Position numbers and translations under genes: made by a program | Part shown: piece by piece, positions 3,117-23,420 of the stretch | Layout of the letters: each line of letters begins with the position of its first letter | Position numbering within the stretch: the first letter of the stretch is position 1 | NCBI GenBank assembly: GCA_041648505.1 | Contig: JBAZOY010000006.1 | Span: 332 to 64,331 of the forward strand | Source: Syntrophales bacterium | GTDB taxonomy: Bacteria; Desulfobacterota; Syntrophia; Syntrophales; CG2-30-49-12 | Reading direction: 5' to 3' | Length of the DNA stretch: 64,000 nt | The notes under the pieces: generated by a model | What the model saw: only the letters and a program-made list of their open reading frames with translations | Databases searched by the model: none | Told to the model about the DNA's origin: nothing

Positions 3117-3139
3117 CAGACTAAAAGAGGAGGTGAATT

Positions 3140-3671: not shown

Positions 3672-3690
3672 CTTCTCGTCAGGAATAAAC

Positions 3691-4590
3691 ATGTCTCATG
3701 ATCACAACCATCAAGCGGGGAATTACAATCGTGCCTTTGCCATTAGTGTTGTCCTCAATGTTGTTTTCGTCGTCATTGAAGCAAGCTATGGTATTGTGGC
3801 CGAATCCATGTCCCTGGTGGCAGATGCCGGCCATAATCTGAGCGATGTGCTAAGCCTGTTACTAGCTTGGGGGGCAAGTGTGCTGGCCGCAAAAGCCGCA
3901 ACAGAGCAAAGAACATATGGATTCCGCAAAGCAACGATAATGGCTTCTTTGGCAAGTGCAATATTGCTACTGGTTGCCATGGGCGGCATTATACTGGAAG
4001 CCATTGGTCGATTCTTCGACCCAAAACCAGTTGAGGGTATGACCATAATAGTGGTTGCTGCTATTGGCGTTCTTATTAATACAATCACAGCCTTGCTTTT
4101 TGTATCTGGCCGAAAAGATGATCTGAACATTAGAGGTGCGTATCTTCATATGGCCGCTGATGCTGGTGTTTCATTCGGTGTTGTTGTGGCAGGTATAGTT
4201 ATCGTGCTCAAAGGCTGGTTATTGATTGATCCTCTGATCAGTCTAGTTATTGTGGCTGTTGTTCTCATCAGCACCTGGTCTTTGTTACGTGATTCGATGA
4301 ATCTTGCCATAGATTCAGTACCTGCAGGCATTGATATGGCTGGAATAAAAACATACTTGAACTGTCTTGAAAGCGTTTGTCAGATACATGATCTGCATGT
4401 TTGGCCTCTGAGTACTTCAGAGATTGCTCTGTCTGTCCATTTGATTGGAACCGGCGATCCCATGAGAAACGATTTTCTGATTGAAGTCCAGCAACATTTA
4501 CATGATCAGTTCGGCATAGAGCATGCCACAATTCAGGTTGAAAACGAAGCTGATGGTCAATGTGTTTTGAACAAGAACAGCTGTATATAG
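3691..4590 (+). CDS. czcD: Cation diffusion facilitator family metal efflux transporter
   Basis: His-rich N-terminus (HDHNHQ), CDF signature region SLVADAGHNLSDV, six TM segments and a C-terminal cytoplasmic domain. Confidence 0.9.
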   Translation: MSHDHNHQAGNYNRAFAISVVLNVVFVVIEASYGIVAESMSLVADAGHNLSDVLSLLLAWGASVLAAKAATEQRTYGFRKATIMASLASAILLLVAMGGIILEAIGRFFDPKPVEGMTIIVVAAIGVLINTITALLFVSGRKDDLNIRGAYLHMAADAGVSFGVVVAGIVIVLKGWLLIDPLISLVIVAVVLISTWSLLRDSMNLAIDSVPAGIDMAGIKTYLNCLESVCQIHDLHVWPLSTSEIALSVHLIGTGDPMRNDFLIEVQQHLHDQFGIEHATIQVENEADGQCVLNKNSCI

Positions 4591-4593
4591 AAG

Positions 4594-4652
4594 GGCTAAC
4601 AATTCCTTCAAGGCGACACCAAGGGGTGTCCTCCCTTGAGCCTCGGTTCATT
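4594..4652 (+). mobile_element. attC-like site P2 (59 bp)
   Basis: GGCTAAC-AATTCC-TTCAAGG-CGACACCAAGGGGTGTC-CTC-CCTTGAG-CCTCG-GTTCATT. The 5' half resembles, from memory, aadA-type 59-base elements (TAACAATTCGTTCAAGCCGAC). R'' is the perfect complement of P1's R'. Confidence 0.75.
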
Positions 4653-4806
4653 CCCGAAAGTCGTCCAGTTTCCTCTTTGCGCCCGATAGACGGCTGGCTT
4701 TAATTCAGGTCATCTGTTACAATTTCGCTAATGAACGTGGGCGCAAAGGTTCATTCCGCAGGCGCCCTTGGCGCGCCTCAATTGGCGTTATGCCTGAAAA
4801 AGGCTC

Positions 4807-4836
4807 TTGCAAATACTAAATATTGTACGTTATAAT
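4807..4836 (+). promoter_or_regulatory. Sigma70-like promoter with overlapping palindrome (probable Phd operator)
   Basis: TTGCAA-N18-TATAAT. The inverted repeat TGTAC-N8-GTACA spans the -10 box, 33 nt upstream of phd. Confidence 0.55.
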
Positions 4837-4868
4837 GTACATAATTTAGAAACAACGCGAGGTGAAAA

Positions 4869-5150
4869 ATGCAAAGATTAAAAATTAATCAAGATATCAA
4901 ACCACTATCCGAGGTAAGGATAGGTATCGCAAACTTCATAAAGCAAGTTCATGATACAAAAAGACCTTTGATTATTACGCAGCACGGAAAAGGTGTTGCC
5001 GTTTTATTGGATGCTTATGAATATGAAGCAATTCAGGAGAAACTTGAGCTTTTGACAGATGTTCAGGCATCCCTTAATCAACTCGAAAATGGACAAGGTA
5101 TTGCTCATGAAGATGCAAGGGGAAAAGTTTTGAAGAGAGTCCAGGAATGA
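4869..5150 (+). CDS. Phd/YefM family type II antitoxin
   Basis: 93 aa; the KRPLIITQHGKGVAVLLDAYEYE region is typical of Phd/YefM. GAGGTG RBS. The stop overlaps the next ATG (ATGA). Confidence 0.85.
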   Translation: MQRLKINQDIKPLSEVRIGIANFIKQVHDTKRPLIITQHGKGVAVLLDAYEYEAIQEKLELLTDVQASLNQLENGQGIAHEDARGKVLKRVQE

Positions 5151-5317
5151 AAATCATTTGGTCGCCGTTGGCTATTGATAGAGCTTCGGAAATCGCTGAA
5201 TATATAGCCCAGGACAAACCATCTGCAGCAGAAAAATGGATTAACACGGTATTTTCAAAAGTTGAGCAGCTAAAATTTTCTCCTGAAATCGGCACGGTAA
5301 GCAGATACTGCCAATAG
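5147..5317 (+). pseudogene. ParE/RelE-family toxin, truncated after 56 codons
   Basis: MKIIWSPLAIDRASEIAEYIAQDKPSAAEKWINTVFSKVEQLKFSPEIG is a ParE-like N-terminal half. It then ends abruptly at TAG 5315-5317. Too short for the ORF track. Confidence 0.6.
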
Positions 5318-8470: not shown

Positions 8471-9598
8471 ATGACGACGAACAAACAAATTTTTTATGTG
8501 TTCTTGATGTGTATCTCTTTTTTGTTGGTGTCTTGCGGAAAGGATTCGGTTGTGTCTTATGTGCCGGTTACAGGTTGGGTCATTGGCACCGCAACGGACG
8601 AAGACACGGGTATTCCCACGCCTGAAGTTCTCAAAACAACAAACGGCGGTGCGACTTGGACGCTGCAATCCCTGCCTGCCGAGTGCGTCGGCTTTCAGGG
8701 AAACGATATCAGCGCCGTCAATCATCAGGTGGCTTGGGCGGCGATAGGTGATTTATACAGCTTGGAGGGTGGTATTGTGCATACCTTGGATGGCGGCGCA
8801 ACCTGGGCTATGCAAACGCTTCCCGACGGAATGGGCAACCGGCATATCAAAGGGATCAAAGGGGTCAGCGCCATGGAAGCCTGGGCCGTCAGCATCGGCG
8901 GTGACGTGCTGCATACCACGGACGGCGGGAACAACTGGTACATTGTTCCGACGCGTACTGTTTCGGGCGAGGTCATTACGATGACGATGGTCAATCGGAT
9001 GGATGTGACAGACAGTAACATCTGGATTGTCGATGTGCCGGCGCACAACATGGGCGTGATCCACTCGCCGGACGGCGGTCAAACGTGGCGGCATGAACAA
9101 CTGCCGGATGTTGGTTCCGGACACGGACCTCTCGCCATCTCCGCCTTTAGCTCATTGGTTGCCTATGTCTCGGTGAATTCCGAAGGTACTTTATGGTGGA
9201 CAAGCAATGGTGGCGAATCATGGAACAAAAGCGTCGATGCCATTTCCGGCACGGCGGATTTCGACGAAATCTGCGCCTCCAGCACCAATGTCGTCTGGGT
9301 TGCCATGAACAACGGCGGTTCCAGCGGTGGCTTGGCCGCCCGAATTACGGTGACGGACGGCAGCTTTGACTCCAATATCTATATGAACGTGGACTACATG
9401 ATGGAAGGGATTTCCGCCATGAACGATACAAACGCTTGGCTGGTCGGATTCAAAACATTTCGCGCCGACCCTTCTCTTCCCAAGGGCGCAATCTATGTCA
9501 CGTACGATGGCGGGGTCAACTGGCAGCTCCAAACTCTGCCGGATAACGCCTGCGACATCGATTTATGGAAAGTCTCGTTTGTGGGCGCAAGACGTTAA
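8471..9598 (+). CDS. Lipoprotein with six Asp-box (BNR) repeats; beta-propeller, Ycf48/sialidase-like fold
   Basis: Lipobox LLVSC. Repeated S/T-x-D/N-G-G-x-T/N/S-W units: TNGGATW, LDGGATW, TDGGNNW, PDGGQTW, SNGGESW, YDGGVNW. Confidence 0.7.
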   Translation: MTTNKQIFYVFLMCISFLLVSCGKDSVVSYVPVTGWVIGTATDEDTGIPTPEVLKTTNGGATWTLQSLPAECVGFQGNDISAVNHQVAWAAIGDLYSLEGGIVHTLDGGATWAMQTLPDGMGNRHIKGIKGVSAMEAWAVSIGGDVLHTTDGGNNWYIVPTRTVSGEVITMTMVNRMDVTDSNIWIVDVPAHNMGVIHSPDGGQTWRHEQLPDVGSGHGPLAISAFSSLVAYVSVNSEGTLWWTSNGGESWNKSVDAISGTADFDEICASSTNVVWVAMNNGGSSGGLAARITVTDGSFDSNIYMNVDYMMEGISAMNDTNAWLVGFKTFRADPSLPKGAIYVTYDGGVNWQLQTLPDNACDIDLWKVSFVGARR

Positions 9599-9864
9599 CG
9601 CCGGAATTATCGCTCCGGCAATGAAATGCTGACATACGATATATTTTTCTTCTACCTGTGGTTGCGAGGCGCGCTGCTATCGTAAAGCTGCAGGACATTG
9701 AGTATGCCGACTTTATGAAGTTTTGTTCCTTAGTAGTCATCGACAAGGGCCAAACCCAGTTTATCCGATTCGGCTCATACAGCCATCGTGCAGGCAAACA
9801 GCGAAACCAATCCCGGAGATACAAAAAGTTCTTTTTTCCACCACTCTTTCCGTATTTAAGGAAC

Positions 9865-10764
9865 TCAATCCTCAAGGAACTCAAGTACAATCTTACTGAA
9901 TTTTTTCGGCCACTGATACATAAGGCCATGACCGCCACCTTTAATCTGCACCAGCCAGGCGCCGGGAATTTTTTGTGCTAAGATTAAAGAATTGAGTGTC
10001 GGCGTATTGACATCTTCGGATCCGGTAATGAGTAAAGTAGGCTGCGTAATTTGTGGAAGGCGACTATAAGACCCAGTCCATGCCTCATTTGCCTTCCATT
10101 GACGTTGAATATTAGTTGTGGATGTAGTTTCTTTGGGGTGGGGAAAATATTTCCGGGGGTCAGGATTATCTTTCAGCCATTGCTCGGGGAATAATGTCCT
10201 GAGAGCTTTCATCTGTCTTTCTCGCTCTGTACCGGATTCATCAATCATTGCCCGGATGACATCCGGGGTCGGCTGGATGGCTTCTTTACCTCCGCAATCT
10301 GCCGCATACAGGATAAGCTTATTGACCTTTTCTGGATGCCTGAGCGTAAGCTCCTGAGCGACACAAGTACCCATAGACCAGCCAAGCACATGCGCTTTAT
10401 TGATCTTCAGGGCTTCCATCAATCTGGCTGTATCATCTGCGAATAGTTCGATCGAAAATTCTCTGTCTGAGTCATCGCTATACCCCATCCCCCGGTTATC
10501 AAAGATAATTACTCTATAATGAGACGCAAGTTCTCCCAAAACCACAGGGCTCCAAAGGTCCATGGTTCCGCTAAAACCCATGATCAAAACAATCGGGTAG
10601 CCTTTGCCAAATGTCTTATAGGCGATATTTATATCGCCTGCATGAATCATTCCGGTTTTTAATTTTGTGACGTCGATTTCTTTAGCACAGCCGCAGCCTG
10701 CTGAAAAAATCATGAGGCCGCGCAGAAACCAGAGACTAATTATCTTGAATGTCTGTCTCTTCAT
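9865..10764 (-). CDS. Alpha/beta-fold hydrolase lipoprotein
   Basis: Start chosen at MKRQTF, preceded by AAAGGAGGG. Lipobox FSAGC, nucleophile elbow GWSMG, C-terminal GGGH. Confidence 0.8.
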   Translation of the reverse strand: MKRQTFKIISLWFLRGLMIFSAGCGCAKEIDVTKLKTGMIHAGDINIAYKTFGKGYPIVLIMGFSGTMDLWSPVVLGELASHYRVIIFDNRGMGYSDDSDREFSIELFADDTARLMEALKINKAHVLGWSMGTCVAQELTLRHPEKVNKLILYAADCGGKEAIQPTPDVIRAMIDESGTERERQMKALRTLFPEQWLKDNPDPRKYFPHPKETTSTTNIQRQWKANEAWTGSYSRLPQITQPTLLITGSEDVNTPTLNSLILAQKIPGAWLVQIKGGGHGLMYQWPKKFSKIVLEFLED

Positions 10765-10800
10765 CAACCTGCACCCTCCTTTTTTTAGGGTAGAAAAAAT

Positions 10801-10880
10801 GGGGTTACTGAGGAGGATCGAACTTCCAACCCCCAGAACCACAGTCTGATGCTCTTCTTTCCAATTGAACTGTATCCGCC
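10801..10880 (-). tRNA. tRNA-His(GUG)-like sequence with an unpaired acceptor stem (probable pseudogene or attachment-site relic)
   Basis: D arm GTTC/GAGC, anticodon arm TCAGA-CTGTGGT-TCTGG, T arm GGAAG-TTCGATC-CTCCT, 3' C-CCA. The 5' GCGGATA pairs with 3' CAGTAAC at only 3 of 7 positions. Confidence 0.35.
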
Positions 10881-11297
10881 ATTTCAACACACATAAATTT
10901 TATCCGATTTATTAACTGCTGTAAAGAAAGATAACGATTTGCGTCATTTCCCTGAATGATTCTTCAATCCGCATACCCCCAAACGAACATTACTATGGAG
11001 GCCAAACCATATTTTTCAATTGAACAAGGCTTCCTCTGGAGGTACGTTATTCGATAGACCTTGGGGTAATTTCCGGGAACTTCTCCGGGTTGTAATTCCG
11101 GTTTTAAATCAGAGATGAAATCAAGGTGGCAGGGAGGAAGCGCCGCAAGCGTACATGAAACGTACTCCGAGGAGCCTAATGCGACAATTGTGTCCTAACG
11201 TTAAAAGAACCGAGAATTTTCTTGGTTATGCTGGTATGCAAATAAAAGAGTAAGATGACTTATTGTTATCAGTGGAGGAGAGAATTGCTTTTTGAAA

Positions 11298-11682
11298 TCA
11301 GAAAGGGATCACATAAACTGTGTCCCCCTCTTTTCGCCCCTTTACCAGTTCGCAGTGTCTCAGGATAGCTATCTGATTCTCCAGTTCTTGAAGGAGATAG
11401 ATGGAATGTGTCGGTAAGCTCTGCGGCGGTGGTCTTACCTTTAGAATTGACGAATTCACAAATTGACTTTTGCAGCTCAGTTAAACCTTCTGTTGCTTCA
11501 AGTCCGGACGCCTTTCGGTATTGCGTGGCCGAACGTACTGCAAAGGGATCACAAGTTTGAACCCGCTGGGTTGCCATTATATAGCAGTCTTCACAAACAA
11601 CCAGCTCTCCGAGATTCAAGCTATCATCCGGGGAAATTTCATCCCCGCATTTTTGACATTTAACTTTTTCGGTCTGTGTCAT
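11298..11682 (-). pseudogene. Small zinc-ribbon plus winged-helix protein, frameshifted
   Basis: N-terminal CQKCG...CEDC. After about 11394 the conserved C-terminus LQELENQIAILRHCELVKGRKEGDTVYVIPF* is in the +1 frame and ends at 11298. Removing one nt in TCTCCTT restores it. Confidence 0.6.
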
Positions 11683-12082
11683 TAAACTACCCTTCGTTTC
11701 ACAGGCCCTACTATAACTTTACTATGGCTCTTTTGCATAAGGCAATACTCTTTAAGAAAAACAACTGGTTCGTCATTGATGAGGGATTGTTTTTCATGCC
11801 GGAAGTATACGAGGACGGATATTGTGTGTCAATGGAATAATGATCACAAAAATATTGGTTGTGGTATCGATGAATATGGGAGGTGTGGGAGGGGGGGGAT
11901 GATTCCCGGGAAGAGTATACTTAATTGTGGAGAATACCCAAAGTTATTACATTGGCTCTGTGGCGTAAAAACTTTTATATGGTATACTAGTTTTAAAAAT
12001 TGGTTATTCGTGGCGAGACGGTGTTAACCGAGTATAAATTGGTCCCAAGAGCTTGTGCGCTGGGTTCCAGAAAGAGAAGAAA

Positions 12083-13459
12083 ATGACAAAAAAATTCGAA
12101 CAGATCCCGGTTATAAAAGGGCAGGAGATTGAGACCGAAATCATTGACCTTGCCCATGGTGGCAATTCGGTCGCGAAACACGACACTTTCACCCTTTTCA
12201 TACCGTATGGAGTCCCAGGCGACAAAGTCAAAGTAAAAATCACTGACGTTAAAAAGAATTTCGCCAATGCCGAAATAGAATCTATTATTACCCCTTCAGC
12301 GTTAAGGATTATACCCCCCCCGTGTCCATATTTCGGGCAATGCGGCGGCTGCCACTGGCAGAACGTTGCCTATAATGCCCAGTTGGAATTCAAGTTAAAA
12401 TCAATAACCTCGTCCCTCAAAAAAATCGCCGGTTTGACGATTGAAACACCGGAAATAAAAGGGTACGAAAATCCCTTTTCCTACCGCGACAGGTCGCAGT
12501 ACAAGCTCGCGCAGGGGGAAGATACGGTGATGATGGGTTTTTACAGAGCAGGAAGCCACGATGTCATAGACGTGCAAAAATGCTTGATACAAAAAGAGGT
12601 CATCAACCACGTCATGGCGGGCGCGCGAGAGTTCCTGGCCGCGAACAAAAATACGAGCCTTTCAATGTATGACGAGAGCAGGGCAAGTGGCGCGTTACGC
12701 TATTTGACAGCCAGGGTGAACAGCACCGGCGAATGTCTCTTTACCGTAATTACCCACGAGAAGAGAAGGAACGACTCCATAGAAAAATTCGCAAAATATA
12801 TGAAAGAAAATTACTCCGAGATAAAAGGGGTTGTAATGAACGTCAACCCGCTGACTGGCAACAGGATATTCGGCAACAGGGAAGACACGCTGGCAGGGGA
12901 GGGCAGTATAAGAGAAAAAATAAGGGGTGTGGAATTCGAGCTCGGGGCGGAGACATTTTTTCAGGTAAATACGGAGCGTTTGAACGACATACTGGATTTT
13001 ATAGATGCAAACATACCGGAGGGCGATTCCGTGGTTGACCTTTACGCGGGCGTGGGCGCTCTCTCCCTTCCTTTACATGGAAAAATCAGAGAACTCAAGG
13101 CAGTCGATGTTTTTTACAAGTCCATTAATTCCTTCAGAAAAGCTGTGGAAACAGGGCAGATCGCGAACGCGGAGATAATAAAAGCAACGGCAGAAGCCGC
13201 GGCGGATGAAGTGATACAGAAGGGTAAAACCGGCACGGTAATAGTAGACCCGCCTCGCAAAGGGCTTCATAAGTGGGTAATACAGGCCATCAAGAAGAAG
13301 AGAGTGGAAAACTTGATATATATTTCCTGCGACCCGGCTACCTTTGCCAGGGATTTGAAAGAACTGGGAGATATGTATATTATTAAGAAAATAGAAGCGG
13401 TTGACATGTTCCCGCAGACTTACCATGTAGAAACGCTGTGCGCGTTGGGGTTGAAGTAA
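12083..13459 (+). CDS. rlmD: 23S rRNA (uracil-C5)-methyltransferase, RlmD/RumA family
   Basis: TRAM domain, Fe-S Cys cluster (CPYFGQCGGCHWQ), SAM motif VVDLYAGVGALS, catalytic region YISCDPATFARD. Confidence 0.9.
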   Translation: MTKKFEQIPVIKGQEIETEIIDLAHGGNSVAKHDTFTLFIPYGVPGDKVKVKITDVKKNFANAEIESIITPSALRIIPPPCPYFGQCGGCHWQNVAYNAQLEFKLKSITSSLKKIAGLTIETPEIKGYENPFSYRDRSQYKLAQGEDTVMMGFYRAGSHDVIDVQKCLIQKEVINHVMAGAREFLAANKNTSLSMYDESRASGALRYLTARVNSTGECLFTVITHEKRRNDSIEKFAKYMKENYSEIKGVVMNVNPLTGNRIFGNREDTLAGEGSIREKIRGVEFELGAETFFQVNTERLNDILDFIDANIPEGDSVVDLYAGVGALSLPLHGKIRELKAVDVFYKSINSFRKAVETGQIANAEIIKATAEAAADEVIQKGKTGTVIVDPPRKGLHKWVIQAIKKKRVENLIYISCDPATFARDLKELGDMYIIKKIEAVDMFPQTYHVETLCALGLK

Positions 13460-13536
13460 AGGGGGAACGGAGTTTTCCGTTTAGAGATTTCCTCCTTTAA
13501 AGCATTACCCTATATATAGATAGAAACCAGCGGCTT

Positions 13537-13593
13537 CTTGAACAAGGGATTGAACGAGATATTTCAGGTTTCATAAATCTTGATTGGTTATCA
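13537..13593 (-). mobile_element. B-type attC-like repeat, copy B3 (terminal site of the minus-strand array)
   Basis: About 80% identical and ungapped to 22737-22793. Read on the minus strand: TGATAAC...GTTCAAG. The res stop codon sits in the R''-like end. Confidence 0.5.
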
Positions 13594-16425
13594 TTTCTCT
13601 TCAGTTACATCGTGCCTGATTAGAATATCCCGAATCTCGCCCGGAGCCTTCGCAACCGCACAATGCCAGTGCCCAAAGCCCCCGTGGGCGTTTATTGCCT
13701 GTGCCCATTCCTCCAAATAACGCCGTTTGACCTGATCTTGCTCCGTGTCCTGCCCTTTGGTCTCCAGGACGAGCATTTTGCCATTAGTCAGCCTCACCAG
13801 GAAGTCGGGCCGGTATTTGCGCACTATGCCGCGATAAACGTAGAGAACCTCAAACCCTAGGTGATCGTTCTTGGCCCAGGCGGCGACGTGGTTGCTGTCG
13901 TCCAGCACAAAGGCGTCCGACGCTTCCCAGGTGCTGTCATAGACACAGACGTTGATGTGCGATTTCTTTGTCCGCTCGCAAGGCTTGCCGGTGTACCAGG
14001 TGCGCATTTCGCCCGTGGCGCGGATGGGATGGTCGCGGTCGAACACCGGCGTAAGCCGTTCGGTGTTATCCTGCCGCACCGCCTCCCAGACGTGCTGTAC
14101 CACCCGCGACATATTGAGGGTGATGATCAACCGGCGGCGCAGTTCATCCTGATAAAACAGCGGCGGGGAAATAAAGATCTTGTCCGAACGGATGAACTCC
14201 TCCACGATGTGCACCAACTGGGCCAGCAAGACCTCGCGGCTGCCCTGCCAGGTGCGCTTCATCTGGTCAAACACGTCCCGCGCCGTCTCAAAGATGATGC
14301 GCTGGGTGCGGAACTCCCGCGCCAGACGTTCCAATTCGATGCGGCTGATCTGGCTTACATCCGGCTTACCTTCCAGCACCGGAGCCAGTTCGGCCACCTG
14401 CGCGGTGTGGGCTGCGTCCAGTTCCAGCGACCGTGCCTTGGCCCAATCCAGCGTCAGCGTTGGCTGAAAGACGCGCTCAATGCGTACCACGTTGGGCCAG
14501 CGGATTTCAAATTCCGCATTGTTCAGGTCCGGTTCAACAGGGGTCTTGGGTGTAGGCGGAGGCGGCGGCCCGTCTTCGCCCCCTTCGTGGGGCAGGAAGG
14601 TAAAGGGCACGCCAAAGATGTTGACATATTCCGGCTCGAACATTCCCGTCTCCGGGTTGACCTCGTAGGACGTGCGTCGCAGGCCGCGCCCCACCACCTG
14701 CTCGCATAGCAACTGGCTGGTAAAGGCGCGCAGGCCCATAATGTGCGTCACCGTCTTGGCGTCCCAGCCCTCGCTCAGCATCCCGACGGAAATGACCTTC
14801 CGGATGCCCGCGCCCGGCAGCCCGGCCTTGCCCACTGTGTCCACCATACGGCGCAGCAGTTCGGCTTGTGCGACTTTGGTCAGCTTGCGCTCCACTGGCG
14901 CTTCGGCTTCTTCGATCTCAGTATCAGCTTCCGCCGTCTCCAGCGGTGCAACCGGCTCCTCGCGCTCTTCCGCCTCCTTGAGCACCTTCGAGTCAATATG
15001 CAGGATGCGCTCCGGGTCGCACAGTTCGTCAATGTGAATGCGCCGGGAGTCGAAGGCGTGCTTCACCCGTGCCGCCGTCTCGGTGCGGTTGCACACTGTG
15101 ATCATCACCGGCGGGGTGGGCGCACCTATCTCCGCCCATTTCTTGTATGCCTCGCGCCAGTCGTAGCCCAGCAGGTAATAGGCGTTCAGCACCAGGTCGG
15201 GTAACGGTTCTTCCGGCTCGGCCTTGCGGTTCAGGTCGTCTTTCACGTCCGGATCGTTGTAGATGTGGTAGAGACGCGATTTGTAGGTCTTCGCGTCCGG
15301 CACAGCGTCGTCGCGTACCACCACGCGCGGAGTCTTGACCAGCCCAGATTCGATGGCGTCGTTCAGCCCAAAGTCGCTGACGATCCAGCCGAACAGCGCC
15401 TCCTCGCTGCTCTTCTTGCCCGACGGTGTAAATGGCGTAGCGGAAAAGTCGTAGCAGGTAAGGATGCCCCGCGAACGGTGCAGCCGGTCCAGCCCGCCGA
15501 TCCAGACCGTGGCCTCCTCGGCGCTGTCTTTCATATCCCGGCTGCGCAGGTATTTGCCTTCCGCATCCCAGTTGACCCGCCAGGCGTGGTGTGCCTCGTC
15601 GTTGATGACCAGCAGATTGCGGGCGTTGGCCATCTCACCAAGCACCTCGCGTGTGTAAGCTTCATCGCTCTTTACGCCGCGCTTGTCCACGCTACGCCGT
15701 TTCTTGACCTGCTCCTCGCTGTCCCAAGCCAGGACGTGCCAGTTGCGCACCAGCACCTTGCCCTGCCGCAGCTTATCCAGCAGGGCCGAGGGCACGATGT
15801 TGAACTCCTCGTAATAATTCCCAACCTTCGACGGTTCGAGTACGGCCAGCCTGCTTTTTACCGTCAGTCCTGGGGCCATCACCAAAATATTTTTGGCGAA
15901 GCGGGCGTCCTGCGGATAGGTCACCTTATTGAGGATGTGCCAGGCAATCGCCATTGCCATCACGATGGTCTTGCCGGAACCAGTCGCCATCTTGCAGCAC
16001 TGTCGCAGAAAAGCCCCGCCGTCGCCCGGAATTTCGATGCCCACCCGCTCGGCGGCGGGCGCTTCGGTCAGCCAGATCAGCGTCTCAATGGCTTCCAACT
16101 GGCAGAAGAAAAAGCGCCGCGCCTCGAACTCTTCCGGGTCCCGCCAGTGTTCCAGCAGACGCTTGGTGATGCTGGAGACGCCCGGCCAGCCCGCTTCACC
16201 CCAAGCGGCCACACGCGGACGAATCTGGTTGACCAACGGGATTTCCACAAAAATGCCGGGATCATCGAAAGCCTTGGACTCGCCCGATGCCACCACGTAG
16301 CCTGCCGGACGGCGACCCTCCACCAGATCGAAGCTGCGCGTCTCGCGTTCGTAGCGCCAGTGGCGTTCCGGCTCCGCGTAGGGAGAGTTGATGATAAGGC
16401 GATCAATCGTGGTGCGGGCCATCAA
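13591..16425 (-). CDS. res: Type III restriction endonuclease, Res subunit (SF2 helicase-nuclease)
   Basis: 944 aa. Walker A MATGSGKT, DEAH box NDEAHH, C-terminal nuclease-like region. The start overlaps the hepT stop by 4 nt. Confidence 0.9.
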   Translation of the reverse strand: MMARTTIDRLIINSPYAEPERHWRYERETRSFDLVEGRRPAGYVVASGESKAFDDPGIFVEIPLVNQIRPRVAAWGEAGWPGVSSITKRLLEHWRDPEEFEARRFFFCQLEAIETLIWLTEAPAAERVGIEIPGDGGAFLRQCCKMATGSGKTIVMAMAIAWHILNKVTYPQDARFAKNILVMAPGLTVKSRLAVLEPSKVGNYYEEFNIVPSALLDKLRQGKVLVRNWHVLAWDSEEQVKKRRSVDKRGVKSDEAYTREVLGEMANARNLLVINDEAHHAWRVNWDAEGKYLRSRDMKDSAEEATVWIGGLDRLHRSRGILTCYDFSATPFTPSGKKSSEEALFGWIVSDFGLNDAIESGLVKTPRVVVRDDAVPDAKTYKSRLYHIYNDPDVKDDLNRKAEPEEPLPDLVLNAYYLLGYDWREAYKKWAEIGAPTPPVMITVCNRTETAARVKHAFDSRRIHIDELCDPERILHIDSKVLKEAEEREEPVAPLETAEADTEIEEAEAPVERKLTKVAQAELLRRMVDTVGKAGLPGAGIRKVISVGMLSEGWDAKTVTHIMGLRAFTSQLLCEQVVGRGLRRTSYEVNPETGMFEPEYVNIFGVPFTFLPHEGGEDGPPPPPTPKTPVEPDLNNAEFEIRWPNVVRIERVFQPTLTLDWAKARSLELDAAHTAQVAELAPVLEGKPDVSQISRIELERLAREFRTQRIIFETARDVFDQMKRTWQGSREVLLAQLVHIVEEFIRSDKIFISPPLFYQDELRRRLIITLNMSRVVQHVWEAVRQDNTERLTPVFDRDHPIRATGEMRTWYTGKPCERTKKSHINVCVYDSTWEASDAFVLDDSNHVAAWAKNDHLGFEVLYVYRGIVRKYRPDFLVRLTNGKMLVLETKGQDTEQDQVKRRYLEEWAQAINAHGGFGHWHCAVAKAPGEIRDILIRHDVTEEK

Positions 16426-16787
16426 TACACCCCCTTGTCCAACGCCTTTTCCAAGATGGATATCAGAGATGGCAAGTCATGCCTGACCGTTTGCCAGAGA
16501 ATATCCAGATTAACGTCGAAATAGGCATGGACCAGCCTATGACGCATACCGACGATGTCAGCCCAAGGAATATCCGGCACCCACGCTTGCCCGCTATTCG
16601 TAACTTGGCCAGCCGCCTCGCCAACGATCTCAACCAGCTTCACCAGCGACAACATCAACATAGGATCACGATCGAGGTCACCGCGCTTTCTGCCCTGCGT
16701 GAATTGAACCGCCTGGCGTGCCGCGTCCAGCATATGACGCAGTCGGATGGCATCATCCTTGTGCATATTGCACCTCCGCTTCCTCAA
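16422..16787 (-). CDS. hepT: HepT (DUF86) ribonuclease toxin
   Basis: 121 aa with R-x4-H-x-Y motif (RHRLVHAY). Overlaps mntA by 35 nt. Confidence 0.85.
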
Positions 16788-17058
16788 GCACGCTTTGACG
16801 AAAGTACCGGCTCAGATCTTCCGGCGTGCGAAGATCAACCTTTCGACCTTCGAGCAGGGCCGACAGATCCCGTTCCATACGCGCTATCCCGAAAAGACCA
16901 GGAATGTGATCCGATTCAAACTCGACCAGCACGTCAATGTCACTTTCGGGCCGGAAATCGGGTCGCAGCGCCGAGCCAAAGATGGCCAGACGTCGGATGT
17001 GCCGATCCCGGCAGAATGCGGCAATCCGTTCTTTAGGAATATAAATCGCGGTATTCAT
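16753..17058 (-). CDS. mntA: MntA minimal nucleotidyltransferase antitoxin
   Basis: 101 aa with [18 protein letters not shown] (GS-x10-DxD). The start overlaps the mod stop by 4 nt. Confidence 0.85.
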
Positions 17059-19628
17059 TCTCCTACCTCCATGATCTTCAAACTCTCGATGCCCCGGTCG
17101 TCCACGATCTTGACAGCGATGCGCTTGTGTTCGCCCGCCGGAAAGGGCAACGACACCGAACCCCGGTAGGCCTCGATCAACTCCTCGTCAATCTCAGCTT
17201 TGAGGTTCTTCGCCAGTTTCGTCCAGCCTTCTTTTTCTCCTGCCTGCGGGAAAAAGACCTGGCGCGGATAGAGACTGCGCCCGTCATAGTCGGTATCCAG
17301 CAGCCAGATGGCGATCTGATGCGCGCCGCCCGATTCGATGGCGCCAGTCCTGGTGTTGTAATAGTCGAACCCCTCGACGCTGACCCGCCACTTGCCCTTC
17401 TCCTCGCCTTTGGCAATGCGCTCCAGCCTCACATCCGGCTGACCGATGAGCCAGAAGGATTCGTTGCTGGCCCGCTTCTTCTTTAGGTCGTCGGTCAGCA
17501 GATCGGCGTTCATCTGTGCCTTGAGCAGGGTGACGCCCGGCCAATTGGTTTCGTCAATGTCCTTGGCGGCTTCAGGATCGAACTGGAAGGCGGCGAAGAC
17601 AATCAGTTTGGGCCTGGGCACGAGCGTTTGGGCCTCTTCGATGGCCTGGGCCACCTGGCGCTGTTCCAGCGGGGCGTGCTCCGGGCCGAAGGAGACGACG
17701 ATGCGCTGCGGCGCATAGGCCGTGCCAGCTTCACGCACCGAGTCCTTGCCTTCGGCGCTGGGGCGGGTCTCACCATCGGCGTGCAGGTGGCGGCAGCCGG
17801 GCAGGGGTTCCAGCCGGGCAAAACGGATGTGCTGGCCCGCCTTGCCGCGAATGCCCGTGCGCAGCAGTTCGTCGCGCCATTCACCCTGGCGCAGGGTTTC
17901 TCCGGAACGGGCAATGGAGAGATCGGCGCCAAACTCCCTCTCCCTCTGGGAGAGGGTCGGGGTGAGGGTCTCCTCGATAGACTTGACAGCCGGGGCTGGC
18001 ACGGCCTCCACAGTAAACGGGCCGCTGACGCGGTGTTTCTTGCGGTCCACAAGCGGCTGGTCGTAAAGCGTTTCCGTGCCGGGCGGCTCGTTGTTGGCGA
18101 TAGACTTGAGGGTGACGTGCGGCACGGTCTTGTAATTGAAGCCGCTGCCCACGCCTTCCTGCGGGTGGGCCAGTTCGTAGTAGTTGAAGACGGCAGTCAT
18201 CAGCCGCTGCTTTGCCAAGGTGAGGGCCACTCGGGATGTATCGCAGGTAATCCACCGCCGCCCCCACTGCTCGGACACATAGGCGGTGGTGCCGCTGCCG
18301 CAGGTGGGATCGAACACCAGGTCGCCCGGGTCGGTGGTCATCAGGAGGCAGCGCTTTATTGCCTCTGTCGAAGTTTGAACAACGTAGATTTTTCCTTCAA
18401 TCCTGTTCTGAACACCACCAATATCTGTCCATAGGTTGTTTATTGGATATACAGGGAAGTCATCCAAGAAGCGCAAGAACCTTGGTGAATTACCTTCAAT
18501 AACGACCCTTCTGGCCTTCAGCAAACGATATAGTCCTTCCACTTTAGTCTTCCAGTGCATACCTTTTGGCGGATGATAGTTCTTTCCATTAACCTCAAAC
18601 CTCGTTTCACTTTCAGTGGGCCCTTGGCTTGTAAGCGAGTCCACACTGACCAGTTTATCTTCTGGCCACCAATTTTGTGGTATGTTCTTATAACTTCCTA
18701 CAGGCTTGTATTTTGTTGCACCTTCTTCTCCTGCTGCTTTTTCGTTATAGAGCTGCCGGTATTTAATTCTTGCTTTATCCTTTGCGTACCAAACCAAATA
18801 ATCGCCAGCACGGCTCAAGGTCAAAGAGGCGAATCCGCTTGTCGTAGAAAATGAGACAAGGCTGACAAAATTTCCCGCCCCAAACACCTCATCCATCAAT
18901 TCCCGCACGTGATGAACGTTCTCGTCGCTGATCTGCACAAAGACGCTGCCGGATTCGGTCAGCAGTTCACGGGTTAAGAGAAGGCGGTCGCGCAGGTAGG
19001 TCAGGTAGGAGTGGATGCCCAGTTCCCAAGTGTCGCGGAAGGCACGGATCTGCTCCGGCTCGGCGGTCAGATCCTCGTCCTTGCCGTCTTTCACGTCTCG
19101 TTTATTGACAAAGGGCTGGAAATTGGAGCCGTACTTGATGCCGTATGGCGGGTCGAGATAGACCATTTGCACCTTGCCGGCCATGCCCTCTTTTTCCAGC
19201 AGCGAGTTCATCACCAGCAGGCTGTCACCGGCCACCAGACGGTTACTCCAGCCGTGGGCGTGTTGGTAGAACTCAATGGCCTCCCGGAGTGGCGGGTTTT
19301 CCTGCGACGTGGCGAACAGCGAAAACTGCACCGGCGCGGCGGGGTCGGGGACGCGGCGCACGGCCTCGATGATCGTGCGCGGGTCAATGCGCTCGTGGAC
19401 GTGCAGTGAGACGGTGGGAATCTCGAACGACGTGTGCTCCGCCTTGCCCGCCCATTTCAGTTGCGGGTCCAGGTGCGGGTCGTAGGCGTAGGTTTTCTTT
19501 GCTCCGGCGTCCGGATCGGTGTCCGGTGTTACCAGGCCGACAGGCGGATTATTCACCCGCTCTTTGCCTTTATGCTCGTAGGACTCGATCGGTTTTTTTG
19601 TTTCGGTTGTCTTTTTTCTTGCCATCAA
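17055..19628 (-). CDS. mod: Type III R-M DNA methyltransferase, Mod subunit
   Basis: 857 aa. DPPYG (motif IV) precedes [10 protein letters not shown] (motif I), the beta-class order typical of type III Mod. Confidence 0.9.
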
Positions 19629-19665
19629 TGACCTGCCTTTTGTATTTCGCGCAATTGATTGGGTA

Positions 19666-19737
19666 GGCTAACGGCGGGCATGAATGGTTGGGAAAAGCGC
19701 AAGCTTTTTTTAATCCATCTCGATGCCCCTGTTAGGC
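19666..19737 (-). mobile_element. attC-like site S1 (72 bp)
   Basis: Minus-strand read: GCCTAAC-AGGGG-CATCGAGATGG...CCATTCATG-CCCGCC-GTTAGCC. Lies between the 169-aa ORF and mod. Confidence 0.7.
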
Positions 19738-19757
19738 AATCCCTCTGAAGGAACAGT

Positions 19758-20267
19758 CTATCTTACACCTATCGCACAGGAACCATTCTTGCGCAGCCAA
19801 ATGCCGATGGACAGATTCTGGAAGACGTTTCCGATCATCGTAACTCCACCCACTTGGATCGCGCTTCCCGTTAAATCAAAGAGTTCCGGCTTAGGAGCAC
19901 CCGTACATTTAACAAAGTACCCGTCTGGCGTATATAATTCTGCGTCCGCCTTGAACGCGTCGCTAACACCGTGGGTTAGTTCGAACATCACTTTATTGTC
20001 AAGACTGCATATGAACTTACCTTGCTGGTCTCTTATGTTGATGCTCGCTTTTTTCCCAGCTTCGGTAGGATAGACTCGGTTGCCTTTAACCTTCGCCAGA
20101 TATGTTCCGTCCGAGTGATAAATTGGTATTTGTGTAGTGAAACCAACACCTTGTTCTTTAATAACCTCTATAAGTGGTGTGTCCTCATACTTCAGAATGA
20201 CAGGAACATTGATAAACGTATTCGTTGCGACGGTTATACTTGGCGACGACTGAAAAACAAGTTTCAT
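19758..20267 (-). CDS. Hypothetical protein (169 aa), single-ORF cassette, predicted beta-rich
   Basis: Intact ORF bounded by attC-like S2 and S1. Internal repeat Y-x-x-DG-x-[YF]-h-x-K/C (IYHSDGTYLAKVKG / LYTPDGYFVKCTG). No family recognised. Confidence 0.55.
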   Translation of the reverse strand: MKLVFQSSPSITVATNTFINVPVILKYEDTPLIEVIKEQGVGFTTQIPIYHSDGTYLAKVKGNRVYPTEAGKKASINIRDQQGKFICSLDNKVMFELTHGVSDAFKADAELYTPDGYFVKCTGAPKPELFDLTGSAIQVGGVTMIGNVFQNLSIGIWLRKNGSCAIGVR

Positions 20268-20289
20268 AATTTCCCTCCTAGATAAACTG

Positions 20290-20350
20290 GCCTAACGCCG
20301 ACATCAGCGAGAGCCAGCTTTTTCGGCGATTCGGTGCATGGCGGTTCGGC
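20290..20350 (-). mobile_element. attC-like site S2 (61 bp)
   Basis: Minus-strand read: GCCGAAC-CGCCA-...AATCGCCGAAAAAGCTGGCTCT...-TCGGC-GTTAGGC. Its centre is homologous to S3 and S4. Confidence 0.75.
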
Positions 20351-20401
20351 AAATCCTGTTGGTTGTCTCATCCTGCATTATTGTATATGCCGTCTCGGTT
20401 C

Positions 20402-21004
20402 CTATATGTCCCGCTCTGGCGCGTCCCCGTCATTCCGCCTAAATGTCTCTGCAATGTCTTTAAGCTTTGCAAGGGTCTGCGCAATCTGCTCAAGTTGTTC
20501 AGCGGCTTTTTTGTCCCAATTGTGGTCAGAAGCGTCGGTCCCTTGAAACGACTTGATGTCGATATGAGAGGTTGTCTTGTGTTTCTTTGGTGTGAATCGT
20601 AGGGCCGGATAGCTCTTATATGTTGCCGTAATATCCAATACGTTATCTCCGAGCCCTTTTTGCAGCCCGTGAAACTGGCCCCATGTGATTATTCTTTTTT
20701 CACCTGCGGCGAATGCTGGAATACCGTGAATCAAAGGGCCGTTCTTCATTGCGTCTGGTTCAGGTGCGTTGCCGAAGCCGAAGGCTCGTTGTGGGATTGG
20801 GCGACTTGCCTGAAATCTAACATCTCTCGCTCGGCCATTACCGATATTCTCTATGACCAAGTTGATAAATGACGGTCGTCGCGAGTCCGGTAATGCGTAC
20901 ACTATAACTTCAGGGTCTCGCTGAGAGCGCAGCACAAGATAGTTGATGATCGTGGATGTAAGGGCAATAACCAGTGCGACAAGGCTAAGTATTTCCGTTT
21001 CCAT
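20402..21004 (-). CDS. Hypothetical membrane-anchored protein (200 aa), single-ORF cassette
   Basis: N-terminal TM helix (ILSLVALVIALTSTIINYLVL), a beta-rich middle and a charged C-terminal helix. No family recognised. Confidence 0.55.
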   Translation of the reverse strand: METEILSLVALVIALTSTIINYLVLRSQRDPEVIVYALPDSRRPSFINLVIENIGNGRARDVRFQASRPIPQRAFGFGNAPEPDAMKNGPLIHGIPAFAAGEKRIITWGQFHGLQKGLGDNVLDITATYKSYPALRFTPKKHKTTSHIDIKSFQGTDASDHNWDKKAAEQLEQIAQTLAKLKDIAETFRRNDGDAPERDI

Positions 21005-21109
21005 GGTCTAAGGTGTTTTCCCCATTAGGCAGTCTTTGCAACAAAGTTGCATGAAGTATTCGATCAGGTCCATTCTTCCGCTTTCCCCATAGTATGAATC
21101 ATTTCATGT

Positions 21110-21172
21110 GCCGAACGATGAGTTCAGCCAGAGCCCGCTGTTTGGGCGATTGGCTCCAACGCCTGGTTGGGC
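21110..21172 (-). mobile_element. attC-like site S3 (63 bp)
   Basis: Minus-strand read: GCCCAAC-CAGGC-GTTGGAGCC-AATCGCCCAAACAGCGGGCTCT-GGCTGAAC-TCATC-GTTCGGC. Confidence 0.75.
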
Positions 21173-21189
21173 CTTATCATTTTGCCTCT

Positions 21190-21810
21190 TCACCTTATTC
21201 TCTCGGCTAAGATTTCTTTCAAAGAGTCCTTCTTTTTTCTATTACAACTGCGGCAAAGCAATCTGATGTTCTCTGCATGTGTTGGGCCACCAAGCGAATG
21301 TGGAATAATATGATCGAATTCGATCTCGTCATCTGGAACATTCTTCTGGCAGACGCGGCACACTTGCCCATCACGACGCACTACTTTCAGCATAATATCT
21401 CGGGGAATTCCTCGTTCGATCCTTCGGTCTTGTTTCGTTTCCGTGAAAGGCTCGGCAGAAAAAAATACCGGGCAAATATGGCCAAAGACAGAGCAACTCA
21501 GTTCTTCCGTCCGATATTGGTTGATCAATTCCCACCGCTTTGGCTCCAGTGACAGGATGGCTTCTATCGCTCTGTTAATCTCCCTAAATGTCTTTAATGA
21601 TCCGCTACGCACCTCAGCGATCCAACTCTTATAAGCCTTTTTCACGTCGCTGAACGGCAGATCATCAGCCGGTAGCGGAAAGAACTCTACCAATGGACCA
21701 TAGGGGCAGTATTTGAGCTCCCAGCATGGCTTGCACACTACGTGTTTCAATCGTGGCTTCTTCGCGTAGTATTCATTTTCCGTGGCTAAGTTGACATTTC
21801 TACTTCTCAT
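21190..21810 (-). CDS. HNH endonuclease with Cys-rich N-terminal domain
   Basis: C-terminal CRVCQ...DHIIPHSLGGPTHAENIRLLCRSCNRKK. N-terminal CKPCWELKYCPYG. An AT-rich promoter-like region lies upstream. Start is ATG 21810 or TTG 21837. Confidence 0.8.
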   Translation of the reverse strand: MRSRNVNLATENEYYAKKPRLKHVVCKPCWELKYCPYGPLVEFFPLPADDLPFSDVKKAYKSWIAEVRSGSLKTFREINRAIEAILSLEPKRWELINQYRTEELSCSVFGHICPVFFSAEPFTETKQDRRIERGIPRDIMLKVVRRDGQVCRVCQKNVPDDEIEFDHIIPHSLGGPTHAENIRLLCRSCNRKKKDSLKEILAERIR

Positions 21811-21949
21811 AGACCGAACATAGATTATCCATACCAATTGACGTATTAAAAAACAGAAAATGATTTTAACTTATCGAAAACATATTACAATAAAAAATAG
21901 CTGTCAATAAACAAATGGTTATATTGAACCGATAAATACAGAAATAGGG

Positions 21950-22639
21950 CTATATGAAACTGCCCGATTCGGTCAGCAGTTCACGGGTTAAGAGAAGGCG
22001 GTCGCGCAGGTAGGTCAGGTAGGAGTGGATGCCCAGTTCCCAAGTGTCGCGGAAGGCACGGATCTGCTCCGGCTCGGCGGTCAGGTCCTCGTCCCTGCCG
22101 TCCTTCACGTCTCGTTTGTTGACGAAGGGCTGGAAATTGGAGCCGTATTTGATGCCGTAGGGCGGGTCAAGGTAGACCATCTGCACCTTGCCGGCCATGC
22201 CCTCTTTTTCCAGCAGCGAGTTCATCACCAGCAGGCTGTCGCCGGCCACCATGCGGTTGCTCCAGCCGTGGGCGTGCTGGTAGAACTCAATGGCCTCCCG
22301 GAGCGGCGGGTTTTCCTGCGGCGTGGCGAACAGCGAAAACTGCACCGGCGCTGCGGGGTCGGGGGTGCGGCGCACGGCCTCGACGATCGTGCGCGGGTCA
22401 ATGCGCTCGTGGACGTGCAGTGAGACGGTGGGAATCTCGAACGACGTGTGCTCCGTCTTGCCCGCCCATTGCAGTTGCGGGTCAATGTGCGGGTCGTAGG
22501 CGTAGGTTTTCTTCGCTCCGGCGTCCGGGTCGGTGTCCGGCGTTACCAGCCCGACGGGCGGATTGTTCACCCGCTCCTTGCCTTTGTGCTCGTAGGACTC
22601 AATGGGTCTTTTCGTTTCGGTTGTCTTTTTTCTTGCCAT
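21950..22639 (-). pseudogene. Truncated second copy of mod (N-terminal about 228 codons)
   Basis: About 96% aa identity to residues 1-228 of the 17055-19628 Mod. Retains DPPYG but lacks motif I. Homology ends near 21958, at the AT-rich DNA. Confidence 0.85.
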
Positions 22640-22679
22640 CTATAATCTTCCTCATCTGATTTCTGTCGCTGCTTGGGGA

Positions 22680-22742
22680 GGCTAACGCCTGGGTCAGCCA
22701 GGGCCCTCCGTTTGGACGATTGGCTGCACCCGGAAGTTTGAA
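22680..22742 (-). mobile_element. attC-like site S4 (63 bp)
   Basis: Minus-strand read: TTCAAAC-TTCCG-GGTGCAGCC-AATCGTCCAAACGGAGGGCCCT-GGCTGACC-CAGGC-GTTAGCC. Homologous to S3. Confidence 0.65.
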
Positions 22743-22793
22743 CAAAGGATTGAATGCGACCTTTCAGATCTCATCAATCCTTATTGGTTATGC
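22737..22793 (-). mobile_element. B-type attC-like repeat, copy B2 (S5)
   Basis: Minus-strand read: GCATAAC-CAAT-AAGGATTGA...TCAATCCTT-T-GTTCAAA, with a perfect 9-bp stem. The ORF stop TAA lies inside R''. Confidence 0.6.
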
Positions 22794-23420
22794 GTCCTCA
22801 TCTTTATCTTTGGCTGCCTTAGAAACAGAGACCTCTAGCTTGCGTTTGCCATCAATGAGTTCCTTAAATCCTTCGCGAAGGTCCTTTTGCTCCTTTAAAG
22901 CCTCCTCACTCACAGGAAAACTCGTGACGTCCATTTTGAGGTGGGCATCACCATACAGTAGTCTGACCAAGCCACCCCGAATCAACCGCTCTTCGGTCTC
23001 AAACTGAGCATGGGCCTCCGGAGCGTAGATTCCTCGCTTAACGTGGACTTCGTCAAAGACGTATCCGAGTGATTTTCCCATTTCCATGAGAAGTTTAGCT
23101 AGAAGGTCGACACGACGTTCTCCCCATATCGGTTGCTGCTTCTCATCGTCCTTCGGGTAGTGGTAGAGGTGATCCAAGTATGTCTTCCAGGCATCAGTTA
23201 CTCCCTTGTACTTCATGCCTTGGAACTCGAGGTCAATCATGTTCAGTGCCTGAACGTGCTGAGGTGATACGGTGGCAGCACGAGTCGCCATCAATATCTT
23301 GAATACATTCAGTTTGCGGGTTTTGTCCTCGCGGTAACGCTCCAGGAGTTTCTGCACTTGAACAGCAACCAGTGGCGCGAGAAGAACCGCAACGATCATC
23401 AGCCAATCTGCTATCCTCAT
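22788..23420 (-). CDS. Hypothetical membrane-anchored protein (210 aa), cassette ORF
   Basis: N-terminal TM helix (WLMIVAVLLAPLVAV) followed by a helical domain (FKILMATRAATVSPQHVQALNMIDLEF). GGAGG RBS. I recall similar DUF-type proteins but cannot verify this. Confidence 0.55.
   Translation of the reverse strand: MRIADWLMIVAVLLAPLVAVQVQKLLERYREDKTRKLNVFKILMATRAATVSPQHVQALNMIDLEFQGMKYKGVTDAWKTYLDHLYHYPKDDEKQQPIWGERRVDLLAKLLMEMGKSLGYVFDEVHVKRGIYAPEAHAQFETEERLIRGGLVRLLYGDAHLKMDVTSFPVSEEALKEQKDLREGFKELIDGKRKLEVSVSKAAKDKDEDA

Follow-up and report, generated by a model that had tools for sequence, protein, structure and literature searches.

The 64,000 nt of the Syntrophales bacterium contig JBAZOY010000006.1 analysed here (assembly GCA_041648505.1, positions 332 to 64,331 of the forward strand; hereafter the window) contain a restriction-modification (R-M) operon with the gene order mod-mntA-hepT-res. 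The operon is probably an integron-type gene cassette. It would be the last one, on the minus strand, in an array of attC recombination sites without an integrase (a cluster of attC sites lacking integron-integrases, CALIN), with its own attC lost through an attC-targeting insertion sequence (IS) of the IS91 family. The route by which the cassette became immobilised is in part documented and in part reconstructed. The cassette, its two main genes and the attC sites of the array are as follows.

13587-19671, minus strand: R-M gene cassette proper, 6085 nt, comprising leader, mod, mntA, hepT, res and R'' box
17055-19625, minus strand: mod, type III-like N6-adenine DNA methyltransferase of 856 aa (open reading frame, ORF, 17055-19628)
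13591-16422, minus strand: res, restriction subunit of 943 aa with an SF2 helicase and a C-terminal PD-ExK domain (ORF 13591-16425)
13587-13593, minus strand: R''-type box TGATAAC, the last cassette-derived sequence; its first three bases (13593-13591) are the res stop TGA
19666-19737, minus strand: attC S1, with R'' GCCTAAC at 19737-19731 and R' GTTAGCC at 19672-19666, belonging to the upstream cassette, which encodes 169 aa
20290-20350: attC A2, A-type
21110-21172: attC A3, A-type
22680-22793: attC A1, A-type, the span including an insertion (B, described below)

The genes of the array run from 23420 to 13591, all on the minus strand, and are parted by core-site hairpins. The attC sites were called by hand. 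A1, A2 and A3 are mutually 80-86% alike. On its plus strand S1 forms a long, imperfect hairpin (-19.1 kcal/mol, z = -4.0), whose bulged bases are mostly on the 3' arm; the plus strand thus fits the recombined bottom strand, the minus strand being the coding one. As at least two attC sites stand in a row and no integrase lies within the window, the array is classed as a CALIN.

The 5' boundary of the R-M cassette is the G|TT junction of S1 (19672|19671). A sequence-only reading of the window had placed a GTTAGCC box 38 nt before the mod start. The box was confirmed at 19672-19666 on the minus strand, 40 nt before the mod ATG at 19625 and 37 nt before an alternative TTG at 19628. The overlap between the res stop and an R''-like end, described in the same reading, was also recovered, the TGA being the first bases of TGATAAC (13593-13587). 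This box aligns, after res, with GGCTAAC in five related loci (L001, L003, L078, L080 and L088; loci outside the window are given L numbers) and with GAATAAC in L089. In the window the R'' box is all that is kept of the cassette's own 3' attC. The homologues in L003, L078 and L088 keep their own attC, and the window copy is thus a truncated member of the group. The 5' edge at S1, the R''-type box adjoining the res stop and the comparison with other loci all agree with the earlier proposal of one large integron-type cassette, and its size of 6.1 kb is, as had been remarked, unusual for a cassette.

A second, truncated R-M cassette start is found within 21190-22680. It encodes a Mod N-terminal fragment of 229 aa (22636-21950), is about 94% identical in nucleotide sequence to 19625-18946, starts at the R' box GTTAGCC of A1 and breaks off at 21960. 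An AT-rich stretch with a promoter-like site (TTGACA-17-TATGTT) follows, and then a gene for an HNH endonuclease of 215 aa (21837-21190), which ends at attC A3.

Eleven Res-related loci were retrieved for comparison. Relatives of Res number thousands; the best 120 are 85-93% identical, and the genomes among these are labelled Chloroflexota, Planctomycetota (Thermoguttaceae), Desulfobacterota, Chlorobi (Chlorobaculum), Calditrichia and others. Nucleotide identity to the window (blastn) is 84-89.5% for the metagenome loci L001, L002, L078 and L080 and 77-85% for L003, which is the isolate genome of Chlorobaculum tepidum TLS. In L078 and L080 the alignment starts at window position 19672 (TTAGCC); in L001 and L078, the two best cases, it extends as far as 13587, which is the C of TAAC. 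In the related loci that keep the GTTAGCC box, homology begins at that box and is preceded by unrelated DNA. The same G|TTAGCC breakpoint is found in five contexts, which are the window copy, the truncated second window copy, L003, L078 and L080. The 40-nt leader after the box is conserved and nearly identical in L078 and L080.

At the other end, the res stop of L003, L078 and L088 lies inside an R'' box GGCTAAC and is directly followed by a canonical attC, an imperfect palindrome of 57-72 nt ending in GTTAGGC, GTTAGAC or GTTATGC. The L078 unit heads a same-strand row of small ORFs together with HicAB and PIN toxin-antitoxin pairs. A fixed 5' edge and an attC after res are together the signature of an integron gene cassette, and the alternative that the operon is simply chromosomal DNA next to the array, which the sequence-only reading had named as its refutation, was therefore rejected. 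Judged by this comparison, the mod-res unit circulates as an integron cassette with a fixed G|TTAGCC 5' edge and an attC of its own, the R'' box of which adjoins or holds the res stop.

The sequence beyond the R'' box is of another origin. It comprises the following features.

13540-13586, plus strand: decayed attC-like terminal hairpin of an IS91-family element, here called B, with no stable fold (-2.9 kcal/mol, z = +0.5)
13484-13539, plus strand: remnant of an IS91-family right (oriIS-type) end, about 55 nt, including the CCTATATATAG palindrome and ...GCGGCTTCTT
12053-13483, plus strand: chromosomal flank with an rlmD-type RNA methyltransferase gene (PF05958 and TRAM), stop at 13459

The stretch 13537-13593 had been taken for the cassette's own, B-type attC. 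Only the R'' box proved to be cassette-derived, and 13540-13586 and 13484-13539 match the right end of an IS91-family element. Beyond TAAC the window resembles no R-M homologue. The repeat 13538-13602 has a single other copy in the window, at 22738-22802, with 77% identity and none expected by chance. The 52-nt unit 13540-13591, made up of the B hairpin and the first five R'' bases, is identical at 43 of 52 positions to the consensus of 28 distinct copies; the copy at 22740 has an 11-bp stem and agrees with the consensus at 51 of 52. Pattern scans for B gave 12 contigs of metagenome-assembled genomes (MAGs) and 59 metagenome contigs, ten of them chance matches, which left 45 non-redundant sites. 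The DNA to the right of ...ATTGGTTAT differs at every B site. Of the 24 B sites with an adjoining ORF of at least 60 aa, 16 have the ORF's stop codon in the TAA of ATAAC, as is usual for a cassette R'' box.

About three quarters of the B sites run leftwards into conserved sequence equivalent to window 13484-13539. In at least ten loci this conserved sequence is the last 257 nt or so of a 2.5-kb element with two genes. One codes for a tyrosine recombinase resembling Xer and IntI (178 bits with TIGR02249, short of the cutoff of 265), the other for an IS91-family transposase (NF033538 'IS91 family transposase' at 366 bits, cutoff 125; PF04986 and PF14319, for example in L037). In full copies such as that of L037 the product is a Y2 HUH transposase with a Zn-binding N-terminus. 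Full copies in L038, L020, L030 and L026, and other loci too, have right ends that align with window 13484-13539. Only the terminal 100 nt or so of the element are present in the window, and no transposase gene is found there.

The left end of the element, GTTCAAGTAAGCCGCTACGCGGC, stays the same in four flanks that differ from one another and include at least two attC-like hairpins. The right end consists of the CCTATATATAG palindrome and the B hairpin and is followed by GTTAT or GTTAG(GC), equivalent to the bottom-strand R'' box, with no target duplication. Because one copy abuts GTTAGGC in place of GTTAT, these bases are assigned to the target DNA. Full copies of about 2.5 kb were seen in L038 (about 838-3312) and L076 (about 2787-5261) and also in L020, L026, L030, L037, L069, L016 and L032. 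They sit beside the R'' box of cassette attCs, come from many groundwater and sediment metagenomes and MAGs, and are 74-99% identical to one another. A targeted literature search gave no description of an attC R''-box target preference for the IS91 family.

The other copy in the window, a near-consensus solo B (22740-22786), interrupts the A-type attC A1 at its R'' box, behind a DUF6680 cassette. When B is removed from 22680-22793 an ordinary A-type attC with R'' GCATAAC is left, and solo B hairpins are therefore best read as footprints of a lost element body. The body may have been lost between the inverted GTTCAAG/CTTGAAC ends. Insertion of B in A1 also explains the apparent presence of two abutting attC sites that share GTTCAAAC. 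An ORF-less mini-cassette sharing GTTCAAAC with the next attC was considered and found less parsimonious than insertion into an A-type attC. Three further identities for B were rejected: a solitary CRISPR-like repeat, as the ...GGATTGAAAG ending is not conserved among copies; a promoter, as the spacing is 19-21 nt and the hexamers are poor; and the end of a terminal-inverted-repeat transposon carrying the whole array, as there is no partner end. An inverted-repeat search for a partner end of 13484-13592 returned nothing, and Rfam returned nothing relevant for the window at the gathering threshold or for 13380-13700 at E<=10.

Three of the other loci with B deserve mention. In L017, a Syntrophus sp. 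contig, an internally deleted integron integrase gene (3233-3895, 220 aa, matched by TIGR02249 in its N- and C-terminal parts only) lies 3 kb from a B/IS-end site, and long repeats of about 180 nt separate the cassettes there. In L007 and L013 the 127 nt around the B site are 100% identical. These are MAGs of one study, labelled Thermodesulfobacteriota and Patescibacteria, and the identity points to a binning error or a very recent transfer.

The proposed course of events at the R-M cassette is that an IS91-family element of about 2.5 kb, which would insert beside the R'' box of cassette attCs, entered the attC of this cassette in one copy. A later deletion may then have removed the greater part of the element together with the L'/R' half of the attC and any sequence beyond it, joining the remnant to the end of rlmD. 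The remnant of about 55 nt runs straight into a hairpin right after the rlmD stop; this hairpin looks like the rlmD terminator and was not listed by the terminator scan. Excision requires recombination of S1 with the cassette's own R', and since the L'/R' half is gone the cassette would be immobilised. Lacking an R' of its own, and with no integrase in the window, it can probably no longer move by integron recombination. The earlier suggestion of a degenerate, immobilised cassette is thus upheld as regards immobilisation and amended as regards mechanism, with IS insertion and deletion in place of simple attC decay.

Within the cassette, mod and res enclose two small genes, and one segment of mod stands apart from the rest.

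16753-17058, minus strand: mntA-like nucleotidyltransferase gene, 101 aa, PF01909 (NTP_transf_2) and PF18765
16422-16766, minus strand: hepT-like HEPN RNase gene, 114 aa from the ATG (ORF 16422-16787), PF01934 at 5.3e-21
18390-18865, minus strand: variable target-recognition segment of Mod, 476 nt, host-like in composition, with a GC content of 0.435 and a GC content at third codon positions (GC3) of 0.41

The four-gene content previously proposed was corroborated by matches to Pfam, NCBIfam and PADLOC profiles and by intact motifs. Mod matches PF01555 (N6_N4_Mtase) at 1.6e-29 and the PADLOC profile MTase_III PDLC03632 at 540 bits. Its translation has DPPY (motif IV) at residue 158, then a variable segment at about 254-412 and then FxGxG (motif I), and this succession of motif IV, target-recognition segment and motif I is that of a beta-class N6-adenine methyltransferase. 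Res contains PF04851 (ResIII) and scores 1148.6 bits with NCBIfam NF046055, 'BPTD_3080 family restriction endonuclease', the cutoff of which is 800. Counted from a TTG one codon upstream of the ATG, the Res motifs are GSGKT at 149, DEAH at 276, SAT at 328 and PDF...LETK at about 873-890. The type III features of SF2 helicase motifs and a PD-(D/E)xK nuclease in Res, with res downstream of mod, are all present.

The HepT motif RX4HXY is found as RHRLVHAY and the MntA motif GSX10DXD is present; the homologues of HepT are likewise 114 aa long. The Pfam matches of both proteins exceed the cutoff. The NCBIfam equivalog scores are 37.2 bits for mntA (NF047752) and 29.3 bits for hepT (NF047751), both below the cutoff of 60, and the two are therefore best named a MntA/HepT-like pair. 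The MntA-like protein (16753-17058) has more than 7000 relatives at E<=1e-20. Among them the best 120, from MAGs of Nitrospira, Planctomycetes, Chloroflexi and Anaerolineae, share 77-100% identity, and to be conserved so highly and so broadly is unusual for an antitoxin.

Starts and stops overlap at all three gene junctions: the mod stop with the mntA ATG (ATGA), mntA with hepT by 14 nt, and the hepT stop with the res ATG. The four genes are a single translationally coupled operon with intact catalytic motifs, and the operon is predicted to be a complete type III-like R-M system of the BPTD_3080 family. From the families to which the proteins belong, Mod would methylate a recognition sequence set by the swapped-in target-recognition segment, and Res would act as an ATP-dependent helicase-nuclease that cuts incoming unmethylated DNA. 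The MntA/HepT pair could serve as an addiction or abortive-infection module stabilising the operon.

The foreign composition previously estimated from sampled lines was confirmed when profiles were computed. GC is 0.59-0.62 over 14-18 kb compared with 0.46 for the window outside the array, and GC3 is 0.77 in res and 0.75-0.79 in the conserved parts of mod compared with 0.41-0.56 in ten flanking genes. The cassette is a mosaic rather than a uniformly GC-rich block, and the description as a single GC-rich unit had to be given up. None of five related loci (L001, L002, L003, L078 and L080) shows nucleotide homology to the segment 18865-18390, both flanks of which do align; the segment's position between motif IV and motif I of Mod identifies it as the target-recognition segment. 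The GC content of mntA and hepT is 0.54. The segment 17055-16435, which carries this pair, is absent from L001/L077, L078/L079 and L080 (Res 91-93% identical) and from L003 (Res 86%), and in loci without it mod and res overlap directly. The full order mod-mntA-hepT-res recurs in the metagenome contigs L081/L082 and L083-L086 and in a Thermoguttaceae MAG (L087). The four-gene arrangement is thus not peculiar to this locus but a recurrent variant, and mntA-hepT is a recurrent insertion between mod and res.

The continuity of the locus was examined by comparing Logan contigs of the groundwater metagenome run X1 with the window. The first, of 8480 nt (depth 10.7), reaches at least from 9000 to 13768 and includes rlmD, the IS remnant, B and the end of res. 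Another of 2305 nt (depth 12.2) covers 19542-21846 with mod, S1 and the next two cassettes, and a third of 14291 nt (depth 10.3) runs from 22526 into chromosomal genes. Independent contigs at flank-like depth (10-12x) therefore extend over both cassette junctions and tie both ends to the host.

The alternative nearest to the preferred account is that the B-type site 13537-13593 is, after all, the degenerate attC of the cassette itself. On this view the B sites would make up a homogeneous attC family comparable to the Vibrio VCRs, with an inner GTTC at which the IS91-family element would prefer to insert. This is unlikely. It would fit the fact that in about seven contexts B stands right behind an ORF stop with no IS present, and the enrichment of ORF stops in ATAAC. 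L006 has a GTTAGAG box 13 nt past the stem that is complementary at 6 of 7 positions to the preceding CTATAAC, and deletion of CAAG...CTT from four IS-filled sites restores the GTT|GAAC junction of IS-free sites. However, the IS end is present at about three quarters of the B sites, and each related locus has one B, the window two, with no tandem ORF-B-ORF-B rows. Homologous R-M cassettes have simple attCs unrelated to B, and TAAC is the exact point at which they cease to match the window. The ordinary A-type attC that remains in A1 without B, and the IS copy that abuts GTTAGGC, by which those bases belong to the target and not to the element, also speak for B as the end of an IS.

Two further explanations would deny the cassette altogether. 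It is very improbable that the operon is an ordinary horizontally acquired R-M island, brought by another vehicle and placed beside the array by chance. The window has no integrase and no intact attC downstream of the operon, several homologous loci also lack an attC, and the Res relatives in the plasmid collection, distant at no more than 64% identity, are without obvious integron context. These points are outweighed by the 5' homology edge, which coincides with the core-site crossover point in five independent contexts, by the canonical attC with the res stop inside R'' in three loci, and by the truncated second mod copy, which begins at the R' of another attC. An assembly artefact, in which a GC-rich R-M contig of another groundwater organism was joined through shared repeats (attC, the B hairpin or the duplicated mod 5' end), is given equally little credence. 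The cassette interior, 13768-19542, is covered by short Logan contigs alone, with a summed depth of 14-20x, and related copies are evident from loose ends at 13902, 17968, 22791 and 22794; it is the presence of such R-M copies and of further B sites in the same sample that breaks up the interior. Against an artefact, the 8480-nt contig links rlmD to res, which it enters as far as 13768 after crossing the IS remnant and B, the 2305-nt contig runs from mod at 19542 through S1 to its neighbours, and the depths of the junction contigs match the flanks (10.3-10.7).

Besides the fragmented interior, several results weigh against a cassette truncated by an attC-targeting IS. About half of the examined related R-M loci have a decayed or absent attC (L002, L081-L083, L087 and L089), which indicates that the R-M unit also persists outside arrays. 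No integron integrase or tyrosine recombinase was found by Pfam scan among the 24 largest candidate ORFs of the window, and a promoter and terminator scan found no consensus promoter upstream of mod. A crude attC scan based on core boxes and DNA folding recovered S1 and A2 alone in the window, together with the L003 and L078 sites; with about 0.7 false positives per 10 kb or so of shuffled sequence it is too unspecific to serve as evidence. RNAalifold on 18 B variants recovered the outer stem alone, which the search pattern had already fixed, so that B gains no formal covariation support from it; the inner stem varies visibly and is misaligned. As to ownership of the hairpin, B is read here as part of the IS, and in a minority reading it may instead be an attC module that the IS targets.

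Some features of the window lie apart from the cassette. One contig of run X1 has a joint from 12182 to 9000 and so goes back 3183 nt. A tRNA-like relic at about 10800-10885 was not called by ARAGORN, which found no tRNA gene. Two cobalamin riboswitches on the minus strand, at 38893-39093 (71 bits) and 40998-41213 (55 bits), precede FecCD-type ABC-transporter genes.

Integron defence cassettes, CALINs, type III R-M systems, HEPN/MNT pairs in R-M loci and IS91 elements are already known; what is unusual here is the size of the cassette and its spread across labelled phyla. The usual view is that integron cassettes carry small, streamlined genes and no others, and anti-phage defence cassettes in mobile integrons have reportedly been treated in the 'BRiC' work. 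The present locus is like the known integron defence cassettes in that a single cassette of an attC array holds a defence system and has toxin-antitoxin genes for neighbours. It is unlike them in its length of 5.5-6.1 kb, in encoding a type III-like, ATP-dependent system with Mod and Res of full size (856 and 943 aa), and in its hosts, which are anaerobic sediment and groundwater lineages and not Vibrio. According to a survey of defence systems in integrons, in which CALINs were counted as well, the systems carried are compact, restriction systems of types II and IV prevail, and long loci are missing (Darracq et al. 2024 preprint, doi 10.1101/2024.07.02.601686). As a CALIN, the array has the expected row of same-strand cassettes split by S1, A2, A3 and A1 and no integrase within the 64-kb window, but its distal end is an IS91-family remnant and not a final attC.

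The operon shares with the EcoP15I/EcoP1I type III systems and the NF046055 family the order mod then res, the succession of DPPY, variable segment and FxGxG, and helicase motifs I-III with PD-ExK. It differs in that the PADLOC REase_III profiles match Res weakly (36 bits), Mod is long (856 aa) and a MntA/HepT pair is inserted. The likeness is read from the sequence, and the enzymology, including ATP use, a requirement for two inversely oriented unmethylated sites and hemimethylation by Mod, is predicted. MNT/HEPN modules (MntA/HepT, type VII toxin-antitoxin) are known inside R-M operons of type I loci. The present pair is similar in having a minimal nucleotidyltransferase and an RX4HXY HEPN RNase encoded by overlapping genes in an R-M operon; it differs in lying between mod and res of a type III-like system and in its equivalog scores below cutoff.

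Mobile elements that target attC include the IS1111-attC insertion sequences and the group IIC-attC introns, and the element beside res resembles them in its fixed attC position. The plan of IS91, IS801 and IS1294 comprises a left end of GTTC and one palindrome, a right end of two palindromes, no target duplication and a short specific target beside the right end (PMC13181058). The element has ends of this kind (GTTC and one palindrome on the left, CCTATATATAG and the B stem as the two on the right, no duplication), and its transposase scores above the equivalog cutoff. It departs from the family in its additional gene for a Xer/IntI-like recombinase, its attC-like terminal hairpin and its position next to GTTA(T/G) instead of GTTC/CTTG.

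No literature was found on the BPTD_3080 family. It is conceivable, and put forward tentatively, that the BPTD_3080-type mod-res clade, with or without mntA-hepT, is a 5.5-6 kb cassette carried across several phyla by integron integrases, and that an attC-homing IS91-type element acts as a 'lock' fixing such cassettes in chromosomes. If so, it would be the largest widely circulating cassette, and integrons would traffic full-size ATP-dependent restriction systems and not just compact ones. The intact forms in L078 and L003 and the truncated form in the window provide a concrete unit of comparison, and the locus illustrates how a cassette may become a fixed chromosomal gene when an insertion sequence that targets attC brings about the loss of its own site. 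Here a complete type III-like system, about 6 kb long, behaves as one cassette, with near-identical copies in genomes labelled as several phyla, and this widens the size and host range of what integron recombination may move.

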